NCBI GenBank assembly: GCA_944389595.1
Contig: CALXMY010000002.1
Location: 150,338-214,337 of the forward strand
Origin: an uncultured Alphaproteobacteria bacterium
Lineage (GTDB): Bacteria > Pseudomonadota > Alphaproteobacteria > Rs-D84
DNA: 64,000 nt
Reading direction: 5' to 3'
Within the stretch, counting starts at the first letter, position 1. The number at the start of each line of letters is the position of its first letter. The notes under the pieces were generated by a model. The model ran no database searches. It was given only the letters and a program-made list of their open reading frames with translations, and was not told the DNA's origin. The translations under genes were made by a program, and so were the position numbers. This document shows positions 3,113-62,409 of the stretch, piece by piece.

Positions 3113-5116
3113 ATGAAAGTATATGTAAATTATAATGATACGCGATGGCGTAAATGCAAAATTGATTTTGAACGTATTGCAAATGCGGCTGCATTGCAGT
3201 GTGGCCCCGATGCCGAGGTTTCGATTACATTAACCAATGATTCCGAAATTCATAATTTGAATCGCGAGTATCGCGGAATTGACCGACCAACAAATGTTTT
3301 ATCGTTTGAATTGGGCGATGATATTTTGTTGGGTGATATTTATATATCGTTTGATACAGTTTTGCGCGAGGCGGATGCGCAAAATATTTCGTTTGACGAT
3401 CATGTGACGCATATGGTGGTGCATGGTATGTTACATTTACAGGGGTATGATCATATAAAAAATCGTGATGCGCATCGTATGGAAAATATGGAAATAAAAA
3501 TATTGAAAAATTTAAACGTAAAAAATCCGTATATGGACGATTCCGCCGTATGCAGCGATTTATCATGTTGCCCGGGAAATAAATTTTTTACATTGTTGCA
3601 GCGCATTAAAATTCGTCCTGATGGATTTTGGCAATATGTTATTATGGCTGTTTTGGGTGCGGTTGCGGCATTGGGGTTTGCGCCATTTAATATATGGTGG
3701 GCGACATTAATTGCAATTGCGGGGGCATATAAATTAATGGTTCGTGTACCATCGCGAAATGTATGGCGGGCATTTTTGCGAATTTTACCGTTCAGTGCGG
3801 TATATGCAATTACTATGTTTTGGTGGGTTACAAATTCGATATATGTTGTGCCCGAATTGGCGGCACAGTTTGCAATATGGACGGTGCCGGCATTGATTGG
3901 AATTGGAATTGTTGGTGGAATAATATTTGCAATTCCATTTGTTATAATTTCACGTATACGCACGTTTCCGGCATGCAGACCATTTTTGTTTGCCGGCATG
4001 TGGACATTTGTTTTATGGTTGCGTGAATGGTTGTTTACCGGATTTCCATGGAATCCGATTGCAAATATAACAATGCCGATGCCGATGATTGCAAATTCTA
4101 TGTCGCTGTGGGGGGCATTGGGATTAACATTTGTAATAATTGGGCTGATTGCCACAGTGGTCGAAATATTGGGGGCACGGCGTGATAAATATTGTTGGAC
4201 GACATTGGTTATATTTATGTTATTGGTATTTTTAGGCGTGGCATGGGGACATAAAAATATACAATTATCACATCGTGTATCTGAAAATAGCCCGGTTATG
4301 CGCATAGTTCAACCCGCGCGCAGCGCATCACAAAAAGCCACACATTCACGTGCAGATGCATTACGAAATGCAACCGAAAATGTGCGCATGTTGTCCGATT
4401 TGGCCGGTGCACCCGGCAATCCGGATGTGGTTGTGTTCCCGGAAACATCGTATCCATTTGTTATTGTGGATGGTGATAATATGCCATTGGCAAAAATGTT
4501 GGGACGCGATACAGTTATTGGTGCGAATTCATATTTAAATGGAAATATGTATAATTCAATGATTGTTGCATCCCCAGATGGGGAAATAGAAACCGTATAC
4601 AGCAAATCGCATTTAGTACCATTTGGTGAATACAGACCATTTGGTGATATTATTCCAACGCCTGGCCAATTGTCGCGCGGGGCGGGTGCGACGGTTATAA
4701 ATATTGGGAATTTTTCATTTGCGCCGGCAATTTGCTATGAAATTATTTTTTCAGATTCGTTGATTCCGGTTGGCGAAAATCCGAATGCGATTATTAATAT
4801 TACAAATGATACATGGTTTGGCACAACGCCGGGTACGTACCAACATTTGGATATGGTGCGTCGTTATGCAATTGAATCGGGGCTGCCAATTGTGCGGGCG
4901 AATTATTCCGGAATCAGTGCGTTTGTTTTATCAGATGGTACAATTACATCGCAAATACCAGTTGGTCATGCAGGATACGCCGATGGTGTTGTATTTGGTG
5001 CACATATGACACTATATCGTAAAATTGGTCGTGATTGGTGGATGTTTGTTATTTTGATGTTTTCGTGTATATGCACGATTTCGCTGTATACAATACAACA
5101 GAAAAAATATTTATAA
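3113..5116 (+). CDS. In-frame fusion ORF: rRNA maturation endoribonuclease YbeY (N-terminus) plus apolipoprotein N-acyltransferase Lnt (C-terminus)
   Basis: YbeY zinc motif HGMLHLQGYDH; Lnt N-terminus FFTLLQRIKIRP (cf. E. coli FASLIERQRIRL), LFTGFPW, CN-hydrolase motifs VVFPETSYPF and ICYEIIF; no stop codon between the modules; internal ATGs at 3533 and 3644. Confidence 0.7.
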   Translation: MKVYVNYNDTRWRKCKIDFERIANAAALQCGPDAEVSITLTNDSEIHNLNREYRGIDRPTNVLSFELGDDILLGDIYISFDTVLREADAQNISFDDHVTHMVVHGMLHLQGYDHIKNRDAHRMENMEIKILKNLNVKNPYMDDSAVCSDLSCCPGNKFFTLLQRIKIRPDGFWQYVIMAVLGAVAALGFAPFNIWWATLIAIAGAYKLMVRVPSRNVWRAFLRILPFSAVYAITMFWWVTNSIYVVPELAAQFAIWTVPALIGIGIVGGIIFAIPFVIISRIRTFPACRPFLFAGMWTFVLWLREWLFTGFPWNPIANITMPMPMIANSMSLWGALGLTFVIIGLIATVVEILGARRDKYCWTTLVIFMLLVFLGVAWGHKNIQLSHRVSENSPVMRIVQPARSASQKATHSRADALRNATENVRMLSDLAGAPGNPDVVVFPETSYPFVIVDGDNMPLAKMLGRDTVIGANSYLNGNMYNSMIVASPDGEIETVYSKSHLVPFGEYRPFGDIIPTPGQLSRGAGATVINIGNFSFAPAICYEIIFSDSLIPVGENPNAIINITNDTWFGTTPGTYQHLDMVRRYAIESGLPIVRANYSGISAFVLSDGTITSQIPVGHAGYADGVVFGAHMTLYRKIGRDWWMFVILMFSCICTISLYTIQQKKYL

Positions 5117-11758: not shown

Positions 11759-12501
11759 CAAAAACAACAAAAGTTATACGTAAAAAATTGAAAGAAGTTA
11801 AACACAATCCTCGGGGTAGTCGTTTATTACGTATTCTACGTGCTACGGGCTTGTTTCGTTGGGAAAGACCAAGTACGAAGTCGGAAGAAGTCTTAAATAT
11901 CTTGACGCATGGGATTGGTATTGGTCTTGCAATAGCCGGTTTAACTTTATTGGTTGTCTTTGCGGCTTTGTCTGGTAATGCGTGGTCAATTGTTTCTTGT
12001 GCTATATTTGGCGTAACTATGTTTACGTTGTACTTCGGTTCCACAATGTGCCATGCAACGATTGGCAAAAAAAGCGAATGTTTTTTTGAAGTGTGGGACA
12101 GCGTTGCCATCTATGCATTGATTGCCGGCACATACACGCCATTTTTGCTGGTAAATTTGCGTGGTGGATTGGGATGGACTGTGTTCGGCATTTTATGGGC
12201 CATTGTGATTTTGGGCGCGATTATGAAAATGCGCAGTCCAAAACAGCAACCAAAATGGATTGTTGCGTTGTATCTGGTTATGGGGTGGACATTGTTGTTC
12301 ATATTGCCGGCAATGTTGCATAATATTCCGCCGCGTGGATTGTGGTTTATTTTGGCGGGCGGATTGTCGTATTCGTTGGGGGTAATATTTTACCTGTGGC
12401 GGAAAATGAAGTTTTCACATGCGATTTGGCATCTGTTTGTAATCGGGGGCAGTGTGTGTTTCTTTTTCGCGGTTTTGTTCGGATGCATAATTGATTTTTA
12501 G
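11755..12501 (+). CDS. Hemolysin III family channel protein (PAQR)
   Basis: 7-TM protein with ...THGIG..., HAT...D..IY..IAGTYTPF, ...HAIWHLFV motifs. Confidence 0.75.
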   Translation: MTKTTKVIRKKLKEVKHNPRGSRLLRILRATGLFRWERPSTKSEEVLNILTHGIGIGLAIAGLTLLVVFAALSGNAWSIVSCAIFGVTMFTLYFGSTMCHATIGKKSECFFEVWDSVAIYALIAGTYTPFLLVNLRGGLGWTVFGILWAIVILGAIMKMRSPKQQPKWIVALYLVMGWTLLFILPAMLHNIPPRGLWFILAGGLSYSLGVIFYLWRKMKFSHAIWHLFVIGGSVCFFFAVLFGCIIDF

Positions 12502-12505
12502 CATA

Positions 12506-12534
12506 TTGACATTTATATAAATTGGTACTATTAT
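12506..12534 (+). promoter_or_regulatory. Sigma70-type promoter TTGACA-N17-TATTAT upstream of thrS leader
   Basis: ttgaca at 12506-12511, 17-nt spacer, tattat at 12529-12534. Confidence 0.6.
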
Positions 12535-12544
12535 TCATTTTGTT

Positions 12545-12604
12545 ATGAAAAAATATTTTATTTTCTTTGTCACAACAACAACTACAACCCCCGCGGGGGT
12601 GTAA
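12545..12604 (+). CDS. Thr-rich leader peptide (MKKYFIFFVTTTTTTPAGV) upstream of thrS
   Basis: ATG 12545; six consecutive Thr codons aca aca aca act aca acc; stop TAA 12602-12604 embedded in a 12-nt perfect palindrome cccccgcggggg. Confidence 0.55.
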   Translation: MKKYFIFFVTTTTTTPAGV

Positions 12605-12687
12605 GATTCTGTTTGCGGTTTTTACCGCGTAATGCAATAATTTAATCAATTCGAAATTTAACAAAATAACTGACAAAGGAATTTATT

Positions 12688-14421
12688 ATGTCATATCCAA
12701 TTGAAACTGTACGACATTCGCTGGCGCATGTTATGGCGGCGGCGGTGAAAAAACTATATCCAGATGTAAAGTTCGCGGGTGGCCCGGCCATCGAAAATGG
12801 CTTTTATTACGATTTTGATACTGAACACCGTTTTTCCGAGGAGGATTTTGAAAAAATCGAACGTGAAATGCGCGATTTAATCAAATCAAACGGTCGTTTT
12901 GAACAGCGTAATGTATCACTGGACGAGGCCAAGGAAATATTCGCATCCCAACCGTATAAAATGGAATGGTTGAACGAATATGATGCCGCGGGCGAGGCTT
13001 TATCGATATATACTTTCCGCGATTTTGTGGATTTGTGTCGTGGGCCGCACGTTGAAAGTTCCAAGGATTTACCGCGTGACGCGTTCAAAATTCGCACTGT
13101 TGCCGGCGCGTATTGGAAGGGCGACGCAAAAAATAAAATGCTGCAACGTATTTATGTTGATGCGTTTGCAAGCAAGGAAGAACTGGACGAATTTTTGAAA
13201 ATGCAGGCCGAGGCCGCCGCGCGTGATAACCGCAAATTGGGCAAAGAAATGGATTTGTTCCATTTTGAACCAGATTACGCGCCGGGCGCAGTGTTTTGGC
13301 ATGACAAGGGATATAAAATTTATCGCAAACTGATTGACTATATTCGTCATCGCCAGGAACGCGCTGGTTACCTGGAAATTTCCACGCCGTCGGTTATGGA
13401 CCGGTCGCTGTGGGAACGCAGTGGGCATTGGGCCAAATACGGTGAACACAATTATTCCGGAAAAACCCAGGATGGTAAAATATTCTGTGTAAAGCCTATG
13501 TCTTGCCCGGGTGGGATGTTGGTGTTTGGACAGGGTATTAAATCGTACAAAGATTTACCGATGTATTTGGCCGAATTTGGCAAAGTTAATCGGTACGAGG
13601 CCGCAGGCGGTCTGTCCGGCCTGATGCGTGTGCGCGAATTTACCCAGGATGATGCGCATATTTTCTGTACCGAAGAACAGTTGGAGGACGAGGTTGTAAA
13701 AATCCTGCGGTTTATCAAGGATGTTTATGCTAAATTCGGATTTACCAATATTTCCATGAAGTTGGCCACGCGTAAAGATTCTGAATTCCGTATCGGATCG
13801 GACGAAATTTGGGACAAGGCCGAAGGCGCATTAAAACACGCGTTGGATGCAAATGGTATCGAATACGAAATCGAACCGGGTGATGCCGCGTTTTATGGGC
13901 CGAAAATCGATAACTATCTGAAAGATGCGCTGGGGCGCACGTGGCAATGTGGCACCGTGCAATTGGATATGAATTTGCCGGAACGCTTTGATTTGTCGTA
14001 TATCGGCGAAGATGGCGAAAAGCATCGTCCGATTATGTTGCATCGTGCTATGTTGGGTTCTATTGAACGGTTTATGGGTATATTGCTGGGATCAACGGGT
14101 GGAAATTTGCCGCTGTGGTTATCGCCTGAACCCGTGGTTGTGACCCCGATTTCGGAAAAATTCCGCGAATATGCCGTTGAAATCGCGGACCGTCTGCGCG
14201 ACGCGGGTGTGTATGCACGTGCTGATTTGCGTGATGAAAAGGTTAATTATAAAATCCGCGAATTGTCGTTGGCAAAAACGCCAATCATCGCGATAGTAGG
14301 CGAAAAGGAAATGGAAAATAAATCTGTGACGCTGCGCCGTTTGGGTGTGGAAAAGCAAGAAACCATTCCCGTCGATGAATTTATTGCGCAAATGGTGGAT
14401 GCGGTTAAAATGCCTGCATAA
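12688..14421 (+). CDS. thrS: Threonine--tRNA ligase (lacks N-terminal TGS domain)
   Basis: HSLAHVMAAAVKKLYP (N2 editing domain), class II catalytic core, anticodon-binding C-terminus; 577 aa versus approx 640 in E. coli. Confidence 0.85.
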   Translation: MSYPIETVRHSLAHVMAAAVKKLYPDVKFAGGPAIENGFYYDFDTEHRFSEEDFEKIEREMRDLIKSNGRFEQRNVSLDEAKEIFASQPYKMEWLNEYDAAGEALSIYTFRDFVDLCRGPHVESSKDLPRDAFKIRTVAGAYWKGDAKNKMLQRIYVDAFASKEELDEFLKMQAEAAARDNRKLGKEMDLFHFEPDYAPGAVFWHDKGYKIYRKLIDYIRHRQERAGYLEISTPSVMDRSLWERSGHWAKYGEHNYSGKTQDGKIFCVKPMSCPGGMLVFGQGIKSYKDLPMYLAEFGKVNRYEAAGGLSGLMRVREFTQDDAHIFCTEEQLEDEVVKILRFIKDVYAKFGFTNISMKLATRKDSEFRIGSDEIWDKAEGALKHALDANGIEYEIEPGDAAFYGPKIDNYLKDALGRTWQCGTVQLDMNLPERFDLSYIGEDGEKHRPIMLHRAMLGSIERFMGILLGSTGGNLPLWLSPEPVVVTPISEKFREYAVEIADRLRDAGVYARADLRDEKVNYKIRELSLAKTPIIAIVGEKEMENKSVTLRRLGVEKQETIPVDEFIAQMVDAVKMPA

Positions 14422-14488
14422 ACGCAAAAAAATATGGCGCGGCGTGTCCGCGCCATTATAATATGTGTATAAGCAAAGGAATGGAATT

Positions 14489-14632
14489 ATGAAAAAAGCA
14501 TTTTTATTGTTGGCAATATTGGTCGCGCCAATCGTTTTGACGGCATGTGCCGGTTCATGTGAAACGGAACCAATAGTCGAAGAAAATCATAAATTAATTG
14601 TGCCACCAAATTTTGGGCAAATGCCGAAATAA
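14489..14632 (+). CDS. Small lipoprotein (47 aa)
   Basis: MKKAFLLLAILVAPIVLTAC... lipobox LTAC; below the ORF-track size cutoff. Confidence 0.4.
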   Translation: MKKAFLLLAILVAPIVLTACAGSCETEPIVEENHKLIVPPNFGQMPK

Positions 14633-18303: not shown

Positions 18304-18624
18304 TTAGGATCCTTTTAGTTCACGTATCCAATCCACAAGAGTATCCTGGTCCATAAGACCGGTGCGTGCCTCTATTAATTCGCCATCGCGAAATGCCAAA
18401 ACACTGGGGATGCTGCGAATGCCGTATTTGGCCGGTGTACGACGATTTGATTCATCAATTTCGAATTTGACGAATTTTACGTCCGTTATTGCGTCAGATG
18501 TTGATTCAAAGATAGGTCCAAACATACGACATGGACCGCACCAAGGTGCCCAGAAATCAACCAGCGTTACACCGGATCCAATAAATGATTCGAATGTTGC
18601 ATCGGTTGCATGTTCTATAGCCAT
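18304..18624 (-). CDS. trxA: Thioredoxin
   Basis: WAPWCGPCRMFGP active site. Confidence 0.85.
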   Translation of the reverse strand: MAIEHATDATFESFIGSGVTLVDFWAPWCGPCRMFGPIFESTSDAITDVKFVKFEIDESNRRTPAKYGIRSIPSVLAFRDGELIEARTGLMDQDTLVDWIRELKGS

Positions 18625-18697
18625 CTTTTGCTCCTTCCTTGTTGATATTTCACAGGAGTGTATTATAATCCCCACAAAATGCAAGAGAAATCATAAA

Positions 18698-48353: not shown

Positions 48354-48789
48354 AAAAAATCTTGTCTATACATTGTATATACAACGCGCGGAAATCCGGC
48401 AAAAAAACGAATCGTTGTCAAAAAATAAATGTTGAAAAATTGTTTAACAAACTGTTGCAATGTCGAATTAATCTTATAACTTATCTGACGTATCCAAACG
48501 ATTGAGAGTTAATCCCAATCAAAATAAACAGGCGGGTGACATAAAATAATTTTCGTGTTACCCCGGCGCACAGAGAGAGATGATAAATTGCGGTGTCGAT
48601 TTATAACAGCAGTGTGATAAATCAACATGCCAATTTATAAAAGGGCGCAAAAGAGAGAGTTAAATGTAGGGCATAACATAAATACTAAATTTTTATGTAA
48701 CAGTAAAATTTAGCGTTTATGTGCGGGTGGTTTTTATACCCCTGGGGGCATGTGAAACCCTTTGTCAAAGGAAGGAAAGGAGGAAAAAC
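48354..48789. promoter_or_regulatory. Candidate oriC / dnaA upstream control region (tentative)
   Basis: 436-nt non-coding AT-rich region directly upstream of dnaA with weak DnaA-box-like 9-mers (tgtgataaa approx 48613, ttatctgac approx 48481, gatgataaa approx 48580). Confidence 0.3.
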
Positions 48790-50076
48790 ATGATGCAGAC
48801 AGCGGCAATAAAAACAATGGTGGATTTGAATCAAGTCAAGGGGGCCATTGCCGCAAAAATGGATTCTGCTGGGTTTACATCATGGATTGCGCCGTTACAG
48901 TTTGATGTTTGTGATGATACATTGGTTTTAACCGCACAAAATCAATTTTCTGCTGATTTTATTGGGGCTGTTCATAAAAACGTTTTAACGGATGTGGCAA
49001 ATCAATTTGGTTTGGGTTTAAAAATTGCGGTGCGTGGTACGGCTGTGTCAGCATCGGTTGCGAACGACAATAATATTCAATCATATACACCGGCGACGGA
49101 AACAAATACGCACACAAACACATTAAACGCATTTGATTCATTTGTATGTTGTGATGAAAATGCATTTGTGTTGTCGGCATGTAAAAAAATAGCGGCGGGG
49201 ACGGTTTCGTTTTCGCCACTGTTTATTTATGGTGTGGCGGGGTGCGGAAAATCGTTGTTGATGGATTGCATTGAAAATGCCGCCGCGGGGCGTGTAATAA
49301 AAATGTCGGGGGGACAGTTTGTTTCCGAATTTACGCGTGCATTGCATGATCGCACAATTTTCGCATTCAAGGATTTTTGTCGCAATTGTGACACATTTAT
49401 ATTGGATGATGTTCAATCATTGGCGGGCAAGCGGGCAACATGTGCGGAATTTGCACAATTGGTTATGGATTTGCGTGCGGCGGGTAAAAATGTTGTTTTA
49501 ACCGCAAATGTGGCACCGGGTAATTTGAACGGATTTGATCGCCGTACACAATCATTATTGGCATCGGGGTTGGTTGCCGATGTTATGGGGCCGAATGAAA
49601 ATGTGCGTCGTGTTATGTTGATGCGCGCGGGCGTTTCGGCAAATACTGCGGCGGAAATTGCATCGCATATTTCGGGCGATGGGCATTTGGTTGCGGGTGT
49701 TGCAATGAAAATTAAAACATATGCCGAATTAATGGGTGAAAATGTAACAATGGATGTTGCACAGCATTTATTATCAGATACATTGCAAAAATCAAAAACA
49801 CCGATTGCAATGGTTAAAATGATGTGTGAAAAATTGGGTGTGGCGTATGATGCGGTATGTGGTCGCGGGCGCAGTCGGGCAATTGTATTGGCGCGCCAGA
49901 TTATGATGGTGGTGTTGAAAAGTGCGACAAATTTGTCATTAAGTGAAATTGGGTGCGTATGCGGGGATCGTGATCATGCAACAGTGGTGTATGCAATTGC
50001 ACAAATTGAAAAATTAAAAAAGTCTGATTTGGTTTTGGCGGCGCAAATTAATCAATTGATTGCGGAATGCAAATAA
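48790..50076 (+). CDS. dnaA: Chromosomal replication initiator protein DnaA
   Basis: AAA+ box FIYGVAGCGKSLL; domain IV GRGRSRAIVLARQIMMVVLKSATNLSLSEIGCVCGDRDHATVVYA. Confidence 0.85.
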   Translation: MMQTAAIKTMVDLNQVKGAIAAKMDSAGFTSWIAPLQFDVCDDTLVLTAQNQFSADFIGAVHKNVLTDVANQFGLGLKIAVRGTAVSASVANDNNIQSYTPATETNTHTNTLNAFDSFVCCDENAFVLSACKKIAAGTVSFSPLFIYGVAGCGKSLLMDCIENAAAGRVIKMSGGQFVSEFTRALHDRTIFAFKDFCRNCDTFILDDVQSLAGKRATCAEFAQLVMDLRAAGKNVVLTANVAPGNLNGFDRRTQSLLASGLVADVMGPNENVRRVMLMRAGVSANTAAEIASHISGDGHLVAGVAMKIKTYAELMGENVTMDVAQHLLSDTLQKSKTPIAMVKMMCEKLGVAYDAVCGRGRSRAIVLARQIMMVVLKSATNLSLSEIGCVCGDRDHATVVYAIAQIEKLKKSDLVLAAQINQLIAECK

Positions 50077-61290: not shown

Positions 61291-62409
61291 ATGGAATTTT
61301 CAGTATTTCGTCAGGTTTTAATTCGTGCGCTGGGGCATATGCAGTCTATTGTTGAAAAACGTGCGACTTTACCGATACTGGTTAATGTAAAGATAGAGGT
61401 TGCCGATGATTTAATTTTGTCGGCGACAAATGTTGATTTGGAATTGGTTGAACATGTCGCGGCTGATATTACGTTGGGCGGTAAAACAACTGTCCCGGTT
61501 CAGATGTTATACGATATTGTTCGCAAATTGCCGGATGATGCCGAAATTTCGTTCAAGCAATCGGGTGATCAATTGGTTGTTTCCAGTGGTCGTGCTGTAT
61601 TTCATTTGCCAACATTGCCGGCCGAAAATTTCCCGGCGATGGCGGGCAGTAATTTGACCACAAAATTCCAAATGACAACGGGCGATTTGGCGCATTTGAT
61701 TAATCAAACCAAGTTTGCAATTCCGACCGATGATGTGCGCTATCATTTGGGGGGAATTTATTTCCATATATCTGACGAGGGCAAGGAAAAAATGTTAACT
61801 GCGGTTGCAACCGATGCCCAGCGTATGGCATTGTGCGCAATGCCGGCCCCCGCGGGCAGTGCGGAAATGCCGGCCGTGATTTTGCCGCGTCGTGTTATTG
61901 GTGAATTGTCTAAATTATTAGAGGATGCGACCGTTGATGATGTGACGGTGGAATTATCAGATACCAAGGCACGTTTTACCGTTGGGGCCGCAACATTAAC
62001 CAGTAAATTGGTTGATGCGCAATATCCAAATTATCGCGTTGTTATTCCAAAGGGTAACGATAAAATCGCAATATTGGACAGAAAGCAATTTTTAAACGCT
62101 GTGGATTTGGTATCGGTGGCCAGTGTTGATAAAACTAAATCGGTGCAACTGACATTTTCAATGAATAAATTGGTTGTTAATGCATCCAGTCCGGATGCCG
62201 GAACTGCAACCCAGGAATTAGATGTCGAATACAATGGTGACAGTTCGTTTACCGTTGTGTTTAATGTTAAATTCTTGATGGATGTTGCCGGCCAGGTCGA
62301 AGGTGAAAAATTCCAAATGGAAATGCAGGATCCTTTATCGCCAACAATTATTAAGTCGACCGATAAAAATACCGACGCGTTGTTTGTTTTAATGCCAATG
62401 CGTATGTAG
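61291..62409 (+). CDS. dnaN: DNA polymerase III subunit beta
   Basis: Three-domain sliding clamp pattern; MEFSVFRQVLIRALGHMQSIVEKRATLPIL. Confidence 0.85.
   Translation: MEFSVFRQVLIRALGHMQSIVEKRATLPILVNVKIEVADDLILSATNVDLELVEHVAADITLGGKTTVPVQMLYDIVRKLPDDAEISFKQSGDQLVVSSGRAVFHLPTLPAENFPAMAGSNLTTKFQMTTGDLAHLINQTKFAIPTDDVRYHLGGIYFHISDEGKEKMLTAVATDAQRMALCAMPAPAGSAEMPAVILPRRVIGELSKLLEDATVDDVTVELSDTKARFTVGAATLTSKLVDAQYPNYRVVIPKGNDKIAILDRKQFLNAVDLVSVASVDKTKSVQLTFSMNKLVVNASSPDAGTATQELDVEYNGDSSFTVVFNVKFLMDVAGQVEGEKFQMEMQDPLSPTIIKSTDKNTDALFVLMPMRM

Follow-up and report, generated by a model that had tools for sequence, protein, structure and literature searches.

The window analysed here is the whole 64-kb stretch of DNA (contig CALXMY010000002.1), which comes from a Candidatus Enterousia-like alphaproteobacterium. 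It contains thrS, the gene of threonyl-tRNA synthetase (ThrRS), which was identified from its translation and Pfam domains and encodes 577 residues (positions 12688–14421; thrS and the features of its leader region are on the + strand). The gene is preceded by an architecture of about 140 nucleotides (nt) that comprises two promoters, a predicted leaderless open reading frame (ORF) of nineteen codons and two hairpins with stems of 5 bp. The upstream promoter, P1, is formed by the −35 hexamer TTGACA (12506–12511) and the −10 hexamer TATTAT (12529–12534), the latter ending 10 nt before the ATG of the leader ORF. The thrL-like leader ORF (12545–12604) encodes the peptide MKKYFIFFVTTTTTTPAGV, has its stop codon at 12602–12604 and ends 83 nt upstream of thrS. 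An earlier interpretation of the DNA letters alone, referred to below as the sequence-only reading, had pointed out the near-consensus promoter TTGACA-N17-TATTAT (12506–12534) and the upstream ORF (uORF) of nineteen codons with six successive Thr codons, and both were borne out. Based on the comparison with related genomes described below, we propose that the leader ORF is a cis-acting sensor of the supply of Thr-tRNA(Thr) for thrS, and we put the probability of this interpretation at about 0.8.

The ThrRS protein was scanned against one genome per GTDB species, which yielded 80 loci (L001–L080). The 32 closest loci have 76–94% ThrRS identity and belong to metagenome-assembled genomes that carry the name Candidatus Enterousia or “uncultured Alphaproteobacteria” and come from animal and human guts. 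The genus Enterousia is placed in the uncultured order Rs-D84, and its genomes measure approximately 0.75–1.0 Mb (PMC12306168). Locus L031 is incomplete and was left out, whereas locus L074 was added, so that 32 usable public loci and the window, 33 sequences altogether, were compared. The comparison supports both promoters, the leader ORF, its Thr run, the two hairpins and the lack of alternative pairings. On this sample, the Thr leader element is documented for one genus.

The uORF with a Thr run was searched for in the upstream regions of the related thrS genes and is present in all 32 usable genomes. The tie between the Thr leader and thrS that the sequence-only reading had drawn was upheld, with the promoter, ATG, frame, length, run and stop codon present in 33 of 33 sequences, but the folding alternatives that it had attached to the leader were not. 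The surroundings of the leader are variable. In the Enterousia loci, the distance between the end of the upstream hlyIII and thrS ranges from approximately 190 nt to more than 2.4 kb, unless the gene is missing within 3 kb, and the leader stays with thrS in every locus, including those in which the upstream hlyIII and gltX are displaced or replaced. Because the Thr-run ORF is conserved before thrS in all 33 sequences despite this rearrangement of the upstream genes, it is probably a sensor that serves thrS.

In the window, the stop codon of hlyIII is located at 12499–12501, and there is no terminator between it and P1. Therefore, read-through transcription from the gltX-hlyIII unit could enter the leader. 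In eight other loci (L005–L007, L009, L023, L026, L027 and L030), a canonical terminator of the upstream gene, composed of a G+C stem and a T-run, abuts the −35 hexamer of P1 (TTGATTTTT). These eight terminators are positioned about 40–60 nt upstream of the leader ATG.

The spacer of P1 is exactly 17 nt long in all 33 sequences, the −10 hexamer reads TAnnnT in all of them, and the −35 hexamer reads TTGA(C/T)N in 31. The −10 box and the ATG of the leader are 6–7 nt apart in 16 loci and 9–10 nt apart in 17 loci, and no Shine-Dalgarno (SD) sequence precedes the ATG. This short spacing together with the missing SD indicates that the uORF is leaderless or nearly so, and that the P1 transcript begins no more than about 3 nt from the AUG, if not at the AUG itself. 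The sequence-only reading overlooked both the missing SD of the uORF and the second conserved promoter, P2, which is located between the uORF and thrS.

The leader peptide is 17–20 residues long, and its ending, TTP-x-GV directly before the stop codon, is kept in all 32 usable related genomes. The N-terminal part of the peptide is poorly conserved. The first eight to ten codons are variable in sequence and A/U-rich at all three codon positions (U 50%, 63% and 53%), which points to a requirement at the level of nucleotides rather than to a conserved peptide. From the AUG to hairpin 1, the leader contains 10% G and 16% C.

The six Thr codons of the window, ACA ACA ACA ACT ACA ACC (12572–12589), are the putative sensing codons. 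Leaders contain four to eight Thr codons each, and a contiguous block of two to seven of them abuts the following Pro codon in all 33 sequences. The run is six to seven codons long in 18 of the 33 loci, and two to three Thr codons abut the hairpin in L004, L021, L023, L027, L028 and L029. The six-Thr run is the sole run of at least five identical residues in the short ORFs of the 64-kb window, and its uniqueness there, together with its recurrence in 32 genomes, places it well beyond chance. No further codon-run leaders were found in the window, where gltX is without a leader. An ORF with a Leu run (18610–18645) was considered as a leader and rejected, because it overlaps what reads as the start of a thioredoxin-like gene on the minus strand.

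Within the run, Thr is encoded mostly by ACA (58%) and ACT (30%), and all 33 leaders have ACC as their final Thr codon. The Thr codons of thrS itself are ACA (30%), ACC (29%), ACG (27%) and ACT (13%). The avoidance of ACC and ACG in the run relative to thrS could mean that one tRNA(Thr) isoacceptor is sensed, or that structures competing with hairpin 1 are avoided.

The last five sense codons of the leader, ACC CCN NNN GGG GTN, constitute hairpin 1, with the last Thr codon inside the stem. In the window (12587–12600), the arms ACCCC and GGGGT enclose the loop CGCG, and the codons specify Thr-Pro-Ala-Gly-Val. The stem is invariant in 32 of the 33 sequences, and the stop codon is located 2–5 nt past it in every one. 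According to the sequence-only reading, the stop codon was embedded in the 12-nt palindrome cccccgcggggg (12588–12599); it is instead positioned 2 nt beyond the 3′ arm of the hairpin. The synonymous sites of the stem are fixed: ACC is used in all 33 leaders, compared with 3% of the remaining leader Thr codons and 29% of those in thrS, and GGG is used in all 33 leaders, compared with 22% of the Gly codons of thrS. In contrast, the third position of the Pro codon, the whole x codon (Leu, Ala, Thr, Phe or Trp) and the third position of the Val codon vary freely, and the 4-nt loop is CGCG, CACG, UGCG, UUUG, GUUG, UUGG, GUUU or UUUU. Frozen synonymous sites around a free loop indicate a constraint on the nucleic acid, from which the conserved Pro, Gly and Val residues follow. 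Judged from this pattern, selection acts on hairpin 1 at the RNA or DNA level.

The calculated energy of the core stem of hairpin 1 is approximately −8 to −9 kcal/mol. When flanking pairs are included, most loci reach about −9 to −14 kcal/mol, and one reaches −18 kcal/mol. RNAalifold applied to the aligned region of the 33 sequences returned hairpin 1 only and no conserved alternative pairing. The exact palindrome has one copy per locus and one copy in the 64-kb window. The motif ACCCC-N4-GGGGT was considered as a repeated operator and rejected, given the single exact copy per locus in the window and in 32 segments of 7.7 kb. An RNA structure of hairpin 1 is favoured only because the stem is strictly in frame and contiguous with the Thr run.

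Hairpin 1 is followed by G-UAA and then by a U-rich stretch, which reads (A)UUUCUAUUUG in most loci and GAUUCUGUUUG in the window. The U-rich tract (12605–12614) is GATTCTGTTT in the window and TTTCTATTT in most relatives, lies between the uORF stop codon and the −35 hexamer of P2, and is T-rich over 6–13 nt in all 33 sequences. It is a candidate for the tail of a weak terminator or pause site, T1, of which hairpin 1 would be the stem. A scan for consensus terminators on the + strand from the leader stop codon to thrS found none.

Promoter P2 has the −35 hexamer TTGCGG (12613–12618), the TTG of which is invariant in 32 of 33 sequences, and an extended −10 element (12633–12641) composed of TG (12633–12634), one base and AATAAT (12636–12641). 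The −10 hexamer conforms to (T/A)A(T/A)AAT in all sequences. The consensus of P2 is TTGCNN, a spacer of 17 nt (in about 28 of the 33; 16 or 18 nt otherwise), and TATAAT, TAAAAT or AATAAT. The TG extension occurs in all 11 sequences with the weaker AATAAT box and in none of the 22 with TATAAT or TAAAAT; the 11 sequences form one or two clades and therefore represent few independent events. Promoter scores calculated from single sequences are not significant at P2, and its support is comparative: P2 is deduced from the invariant TTG, the spacing of 17 ± 1 nt that is held despite the changes in length of the hairpin located in the spacer, and the presence of TG wherever AATAAT occurs. By this comparison, thrS is served by a separate promoter of the sigma-70 type located after the leader, from which transcription is predicted, on the basis of the −10 box, to start near 12648. 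The leader unit is positioned between the strong P1 and the weaker P2 close to the gene. The 5′ untranslated region (UTR) of the P2 transcript would span 12648–12687 and is A-rich, with 59% A, 6% G and 13% C over the loci. The SD of thrS reads AAGGA (12676–12680), and an SD-like purine motif is present 6–9 nt upstream of the thrS ATG in every locus.

The spacer of P2 contains hairpin 2 (gcggtttttaccgc, 12615–12628), the arms of which, GCGGT and ACCGC, enclose a TTTT loop, and the 5′ arm overlaps the −35 hexamer. The hairpin is present in 32 of the 33 sequences, with energies of −3.7 to −8.7 kcal/mol, a span of 11–19 nt and variable loops of 3–9 nt. Its arms covary. Position 6 of the −35 hexamer is engaged in the pairs GC (17 sequences), CG (6), AU (4), UA (1), UG (2) and GU (1), position 5 in GC (27) and AU (3), and the arms are GCGG/CCGC, GCGC/GCGC, GCAC/GUGC, GCGA/UCGC, GCGUU/AACGC or UUCGC/GCGAA. 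The covariation indicates a selected structure, presumably in the RNA made from P1. The sequence-only reading had described a U-run in gcggtttttaccgcg; these residues are the loop of the small hairpin, and GTAATGCAATAAT, which follows it, has no U tract. A U tail is absent after hairpin 2 in 23 of the 33 sequences, and in ten loci the spacer that follows the hairpin reads (U/A)UUCU.

Based on the arrangement of these parts, a mechanism can be put forward in which a stalled ribosome masks a terminator or pause site at hairpin 1, so that transcription from P1 is added to that from a constitutive P2. We hold this specific mechanism only tentatively, at a probability of about 0.4. With transcription from P1 beginning at or next to the AUG, a ribosome would load at the 5′ end of the RNA, read the eight to ten A/U-rich codons, then the Thr run, and then the codons that encode the hairpin (ACC CCN NNN GGG GUN). 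When charged tRNA(Thr) is low, the ribosome would linger at the Thr codons, and its footprint would keep the 5′ arm of hairpin 1 open. Hairpin 1 would then be prevented from acting as a weak intrinsic terminator or pause site, and transcription from P1 would continue into thrS. When Thr-tRNA is ample, the ribosome would clear the leader, hairpin 1 would form, and most P1 transcripts would stop before thrS. P2 would provide a constitutive floor of the essential ThrRS, and such a basal supply would enable an essential gene to tolerate a terminating leader.

Several observations weigh against the proposed role of hairpin 1. The candidate T1 resembles a terminator only moderately in its sequence features and is weak relative to the canonical terminators of this genome, which have stems of 7–14 bp and tails of T5–T7. 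Its core stem has 5 bp, and the U-rich tract begins 4 nt beyond it. Four loci, L004, L017, L074 and L029, have additional bases between the stem and the tract. Outer helices that might compensate for these bases were examined and rejected: the fractions of shuffled sequences that folded at least as well were 0.45, 0.79, 0.59 and 0.08, respectively, so that only L029 is marginal. The U-rich tract could equally be an A/T-rich flank of the −35 hexamer of P2. The invariance of hairpin 1 means that RNAalifold detects no covariation in it, which would also fit a sequence-specific ligand. The covarying RNA hairpin 2 within the promoter spacer is not accounted for by the proposed mechanism or by any other explanation considered here. 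The kinetics are also problematic. A ribosome that follows closely behind the RNA polymerase would probably mask hairpin 1 also when Thr is ample, and a ribosome stalled at the first codon of a run of six to seven codons, as found in 18 of the 33 sequences, would fall short of hairpin 1. Homeostatic control by a single hairpin therefore needs a polymerase pause or another step. Finally, the organism is uncultured and represented only by metagenome-assembled genomes. Because of the weak points of T1 and of the kinetics, three alternatives stay alive: protection of the leader from Rho or RNases, a reversed logic of control, and a protein that binds the palindrome.

The first of these retains the sensor and changes its output. 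The parked ribosome would hide the G-poor leader from Rho, as in tnaC or toiL, or would shield the 5′ end from RNases as a stabiliser of the ermC type, and the hairpins would be pause sites only. We consider this unlikely, yet it accommodates several of the observations. A stall at any Thr codon would suffice, which fits the runs of six to seven codons, the first codons of which are more than 15 nt from hairpin 1. The leader and the UTR downstream of it are both poor in G, as the compositions given above show, a canonical terminator is absent, and the kinetic problem of occluding a single hairpin is sidestepped. In contrast, the P1 transcript offers only about 42 nt of RNA before hairpin 1, which is short for the loading of Rho. 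The scarcity of ACC within the run (3%, compared with 29% in thrS) means that C-richness was not selected, and the strict adjacency and invariance of hairpin 1 would be left without a reason. The rho gene was searched for in the 64-kb window and was not found.

In the second alternative, the logic is reversed in the manner of pyrBI or ampC. Efficient decoding of the Thr codons would melt hairpin 1 and allow P1 transcription to continue, whereas under shortage hairpin 1 would form and the expression of thrS would fall to the level provided by P2. This agrees with the kinetics expected where only one hairpin is present and coincides with the end of the leader ORF, and with the runs of six to seven codons in 18 of the 33 loci, in which hairpin 1 would stay uncovered by a ribosome stalled at the first Thr codon; P2 would avert the collapse of an essential function. 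However, the scheme would impose positive feedback on ThrRS, unlike all characterised controls of synthetases, and the six loci in which only two to three Thr codons abut the hairpin (L004, L021, L023, L027, L028 and L029) would place the stalled ribosome on the hairpin. Reversed control does not need the strict adjacency of run and stem either, and we regard it as quite improbable.

The third alternative dispenses with Thr sensing. P1 and the ORF would be an independent small gene for a hydrophobic peptide or a small RNA, or the palindrome would be an operator at which a dimeric protein regulates P2; in either case, the Thr codons would be incidental. In the palindrome, the half-sites are invariant, the 4-bp centre varies and covariation is lacking, as is typical of protein operators, and the palindrome occupies approximately positions −60 to −47 of P2. 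There is also a precedent for leader products with functions in trans, which are reported for the Sinorhizobium trpL attenuator RNA and its peptide (PMC6614838, PMC7968998). An incidental role is nevertheless hard to reconcile with the presence, in 33 of 33 sequences, of a run of precisely the amino acid that the downstream synthetase uses, and with the position of this run, which adjoins the palindrome in frame in every case. Between the palindrome and the −35 hexamer of P2 lie 10 to 17 nt, depending on the locus, no further copy of the palindrome was found in the 64-kb window and the 32 segments of 7.7 kb, and the N-terminal part of the peptide shows little conservation. We judge a locus without a Thr sensor to be a poor candidate.

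A release of the thrS SD by the stalled ribosome, as described for mycobacterial poly-Cys leaders and ermC, was evaluated by folding. In this scheme, the U-rich leader codons would pair with the SD of thrS, and a stall at Thr codons would free it. In the minimum-free-energy fold of the window, UUCUUUGUCA in the leader (12563–12572) pairs with UGACAAAGGAA in the SD region (12671–12681), the complementarity extends over 11 bp, and the duplex has an energy of −14.1 kcal/mol with z = −3.4. In the presence of a modelled stalled ribosome, the accessibility of the SD in the window increased from 0.18 to 0.64. A pairing akin to that of the window was found in L004, L018 and L028. Over the 33 loci, however, the leader-UTR duplex has a mean z of +0.21 relative to shuffled leaders, with only 4 of the 33 below −1.64, and the mean SD accessibility is 0.47 in the free RNA, 0.50 in the stalled RNA and 0.55 in the P2 transcript, which does not contain the leader. 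As for sequestration of the SD by the U-rich leader, in cis as well as in trans, the strong pairing of the window is not conserved across the 33 loci, and sequestration was rejected as a general mechanism. The prospects of translational attenuation as an explanation of the element are accordingly slight, and the leader-SD pairing may be a lineage-specific layer of control added to it.

The sequence-only reading had proposed a classical attenuator of the thrL type, in which GCGG and CCGC segments and a U-run form mutually exclusive antiterminator and terminator hairpins. The presence of a cognate-codon leader ORF with two G+C hairpins downstream agrees with it, and in the window CCGC (12591–12594) could pair with GCGG (12615–12618). 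This pairing needs the variable codon to be GCG (Ala), whereas 22 of the 33 sequences have TTG, TTT or TGG at this place and lack the CCGC complement. To model a stall, a ribosome footprint of 28 nt was masked in the 33 leaders, its A site set at the Thr codon third from last; the mean pair probability of hairpin 2 is 0.81 in the free RNA and 0.71 with this stalled ribosome, so that the hairpin persists on stalling, and it lies within the P2 spacer, mostly without a U tail. A search of the whole window against Rfam at gathering thresholds matched two tRNAs only, leaving both Thr_leader (RF00506) and T-box (RF00230) unmatched, and a permissive scan of 12400–12800 returned only noise of at most 21 bits, mostly on the wrong strand. 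With no conserved alternative pairing either, the thrL-type model is largely refuted by the comparison and can hardly be correct. Neither a terminator/antiterminator switch nor a release of the SD of the ermC or mycobacterial kind is a feature at the level of the family. An operator of the E. coli thrS type, which mimics the anticodon arm of tRNA(Thr), is bound by ThrRS and has a 7-nt anticodon-like loop carrying NGU by the ribosome-binding site, was not found in this region either, and both hairpins are more than 45 nt from the SD.

The control of aminoacyl-tRNA synthetase genes is known mainly from T-box elements, the thrS operator of E. coli and pheST attenuation. T-box control of synthetase genes follows the same shortage-sensing logic as the one proposed for the Enterousia leader, and pheM-pheST of E. 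coli is the classic case of leader-peptide attenuation of a synthetase operon. The Enterousia element resembles pheM-pheST in having a short ORF with cognate codons directly before the synthetase gene and in the expected logic, in which a shortage of charged tRNA leads to more synthetase. It differs in its predicted leaderless start, the lack of a conserved alternative structure and of a canonical terminator, and the second promoter, whereas pheM is SD-dependent and has a canonical U-run terminator and an antiterminator. Leader-peptide control of E. coli pheST is also cited in a study that predicts attenuators of the Streptomyces genes leuS and trpS (PMC1262725). In Streptomyces lividans, attenuation was predicted for alaS, leuS, trpS and thrS, and the leaderless thrL (MKRVRPFLETTPGFVPAR) located before thrS is followed by one hairpin without a U-run (PMC8079986). 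The logic proposed for the Enterousia leader also agrees with this thrL-thrS arrangement, and in both leaders Pro and Gly codons come after the Thr codons. The S. lividans leader belongs to another phylum, has two Thr codons only and no demonstrable sequence homology to that of Enterousia, and no P2 has been reported for it.

The thrL leader of the E. coli thrABC operon (RF00506) shares the Thr run, and its 1:2 hairpin, built from C-rich Thr and G-rich Gly codons, resembles hairpin 1. It controls biosynthesis genes and has a full set of 1:2, 2:3 and 3:4 pairings with a long U-run, whereas equivalents of 2:3 and 3:4 are absent in Enterousia. The peptides of S. lividans ThrL (…ETTPGFV…) and E. 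coli ThrL (…TTGNGAG) both have Pro and/or Gly codons after Thr. By analogy, a hairpin of a C-run and a G-run directly after the Thr codons may be a convergent design of unrelated leaders. In pyrBI, pyrE and ampC, a single hairpin likewise overlaps the end of the leader ORF and the occupancy by the ribosome decides the outcome, with no need for an antiterminator RNA. These systems differ in sensing the speed of the polymerase (UTP) or the abundance of ribosomes and in having clear U-run terminators.

The leaderless poly-Cys short ORFs of mycobacteria sense charged tRNA by ribosome stalling at a codon run (bioRxiv 10.1101/834739). The Enterousia leader resembles them in the distance of 6–10 nt between the −10 box and the ATG and in the lack of an SD, which hold in 33 of 33 sequences, with a start of transcription that is predicted. 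The mycobacterial stalled ribosome opens a duplex that sequesters the ribosome-binding site, whereas such a duplex is not conserved in Enterousia. A full-text literature search retrieved no account of a Thr leader before thrS in the Alphaproteobacteria. The view of the sequence-only reading that leader-peptide control of thrS would be unusual is only partly upheld, given the precedents of pheM-pheST and of thrL-thrS in Streptomyces. Thus, the leader ORF with cognate codons and the stalling on it are known principles, and the new features would be the leaderless start, the single hairpin embedded in the ORF, the lack of an antiterminator and the nested second promoter.

The thrS product contains the class II core, the HGTP anticodon-binding domain and the tRNA_SAD editing domain according to Pfam, and lacks the N-terminal TGS domain. 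The same holds for the ThrRS proteins of Enterousia (the window and L001–L032), which are 576–577 residues long. In contrast, nearly all relatives with at most 63% identity have a TGS domain (MVAIKLPDGS…). These more distant proteins have about 67 additional N-terminal residues, which places the true starts of their genes about 200 nt further upstream, and their thrS is mostly located close behind another gene. In loci L033–L080, the region before the true, TGS-bearing starts was scanned, and a Thr uORF was not found. The loss of the TGS domain and the gain of the Thr leader coincide in Enterousia.

Locus L074 (JAGCVZ010000007.1, 3001–4737) encodes a mosaic ThrRS, of which residues 1–183 are approximately 92% identical to those of Enterousia L017 and residues 184–579 approximately 38% identical. 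Its leader and the flanking genes hlyIII and gltX are Enterousia-like. The locus was considered as a distant, independent lineage, as suggested by its overall ThrRS identity of 54%, and this was rejected on account of the Enterousia-like N-terminal 183 residues and flanking genes. Two origins are conceivable: a replacement of the catalytic and anticodon-binding domains through recombination or horizontal transfer, or a chimeric contig.

Downstream of thrS, a hairpin with a 9-bp stem (14434–14456) is preceded by A7 and directly followed by TATAAT, and it has no U-run on the + strand. Beyond it, an ORF of 47 codons (14490–14631; MKKAFLLLAILVAPIVLTAC…) with the appearance of a lipoprotein is kept in several loci. 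Elsewhere in the window, the presence of dnaA (48721–50076) and dnaN (61291–62409) places the sequence near the region of the replication origin, and the GC skew is positive across most of the window. A single ORF of 667 residues (3113–5116) combines a YbeY endoribonuclease domain with subsequent apolipoprotein N-acyltransferase (Lnt) domains, and represents either fused genes or two separate genes that were read together.

If the sensor is real, a reduced-genome, uncultured lineage of gut bacteria keeps a dedicated Thr-tRNA sensor on thrS. For the annotation of such genomes the element is a caution, as it escapes both Rfam and gene callers, and the sequence that resembles an attenuator conceals a promoter. 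The compactness of the element provides a test of how much of a classical attenuator is needed, and of whether ribosome occupancy alone can gate a terminator. We speculate, as a possibility that is rather less likely than the masking mechanism itself, that the element is a minimal attenuator free of an antiterminator. The leaderless ORF would encode its own hairpin, the ribosome would be the sole antiterminator, and the whole would be nested before the constitutive P2, with the polymerase released at T1 possibly feeding P2 or with hairpin 2 taking part. Its evolution would have taken place in a genome of about 0.9 Mb and been accompanied by the loss of the TGS domain of ThrRS. If true, such a minimal attenuator would be an undescribed design for the control of a synthetase gene by tRNA charging.

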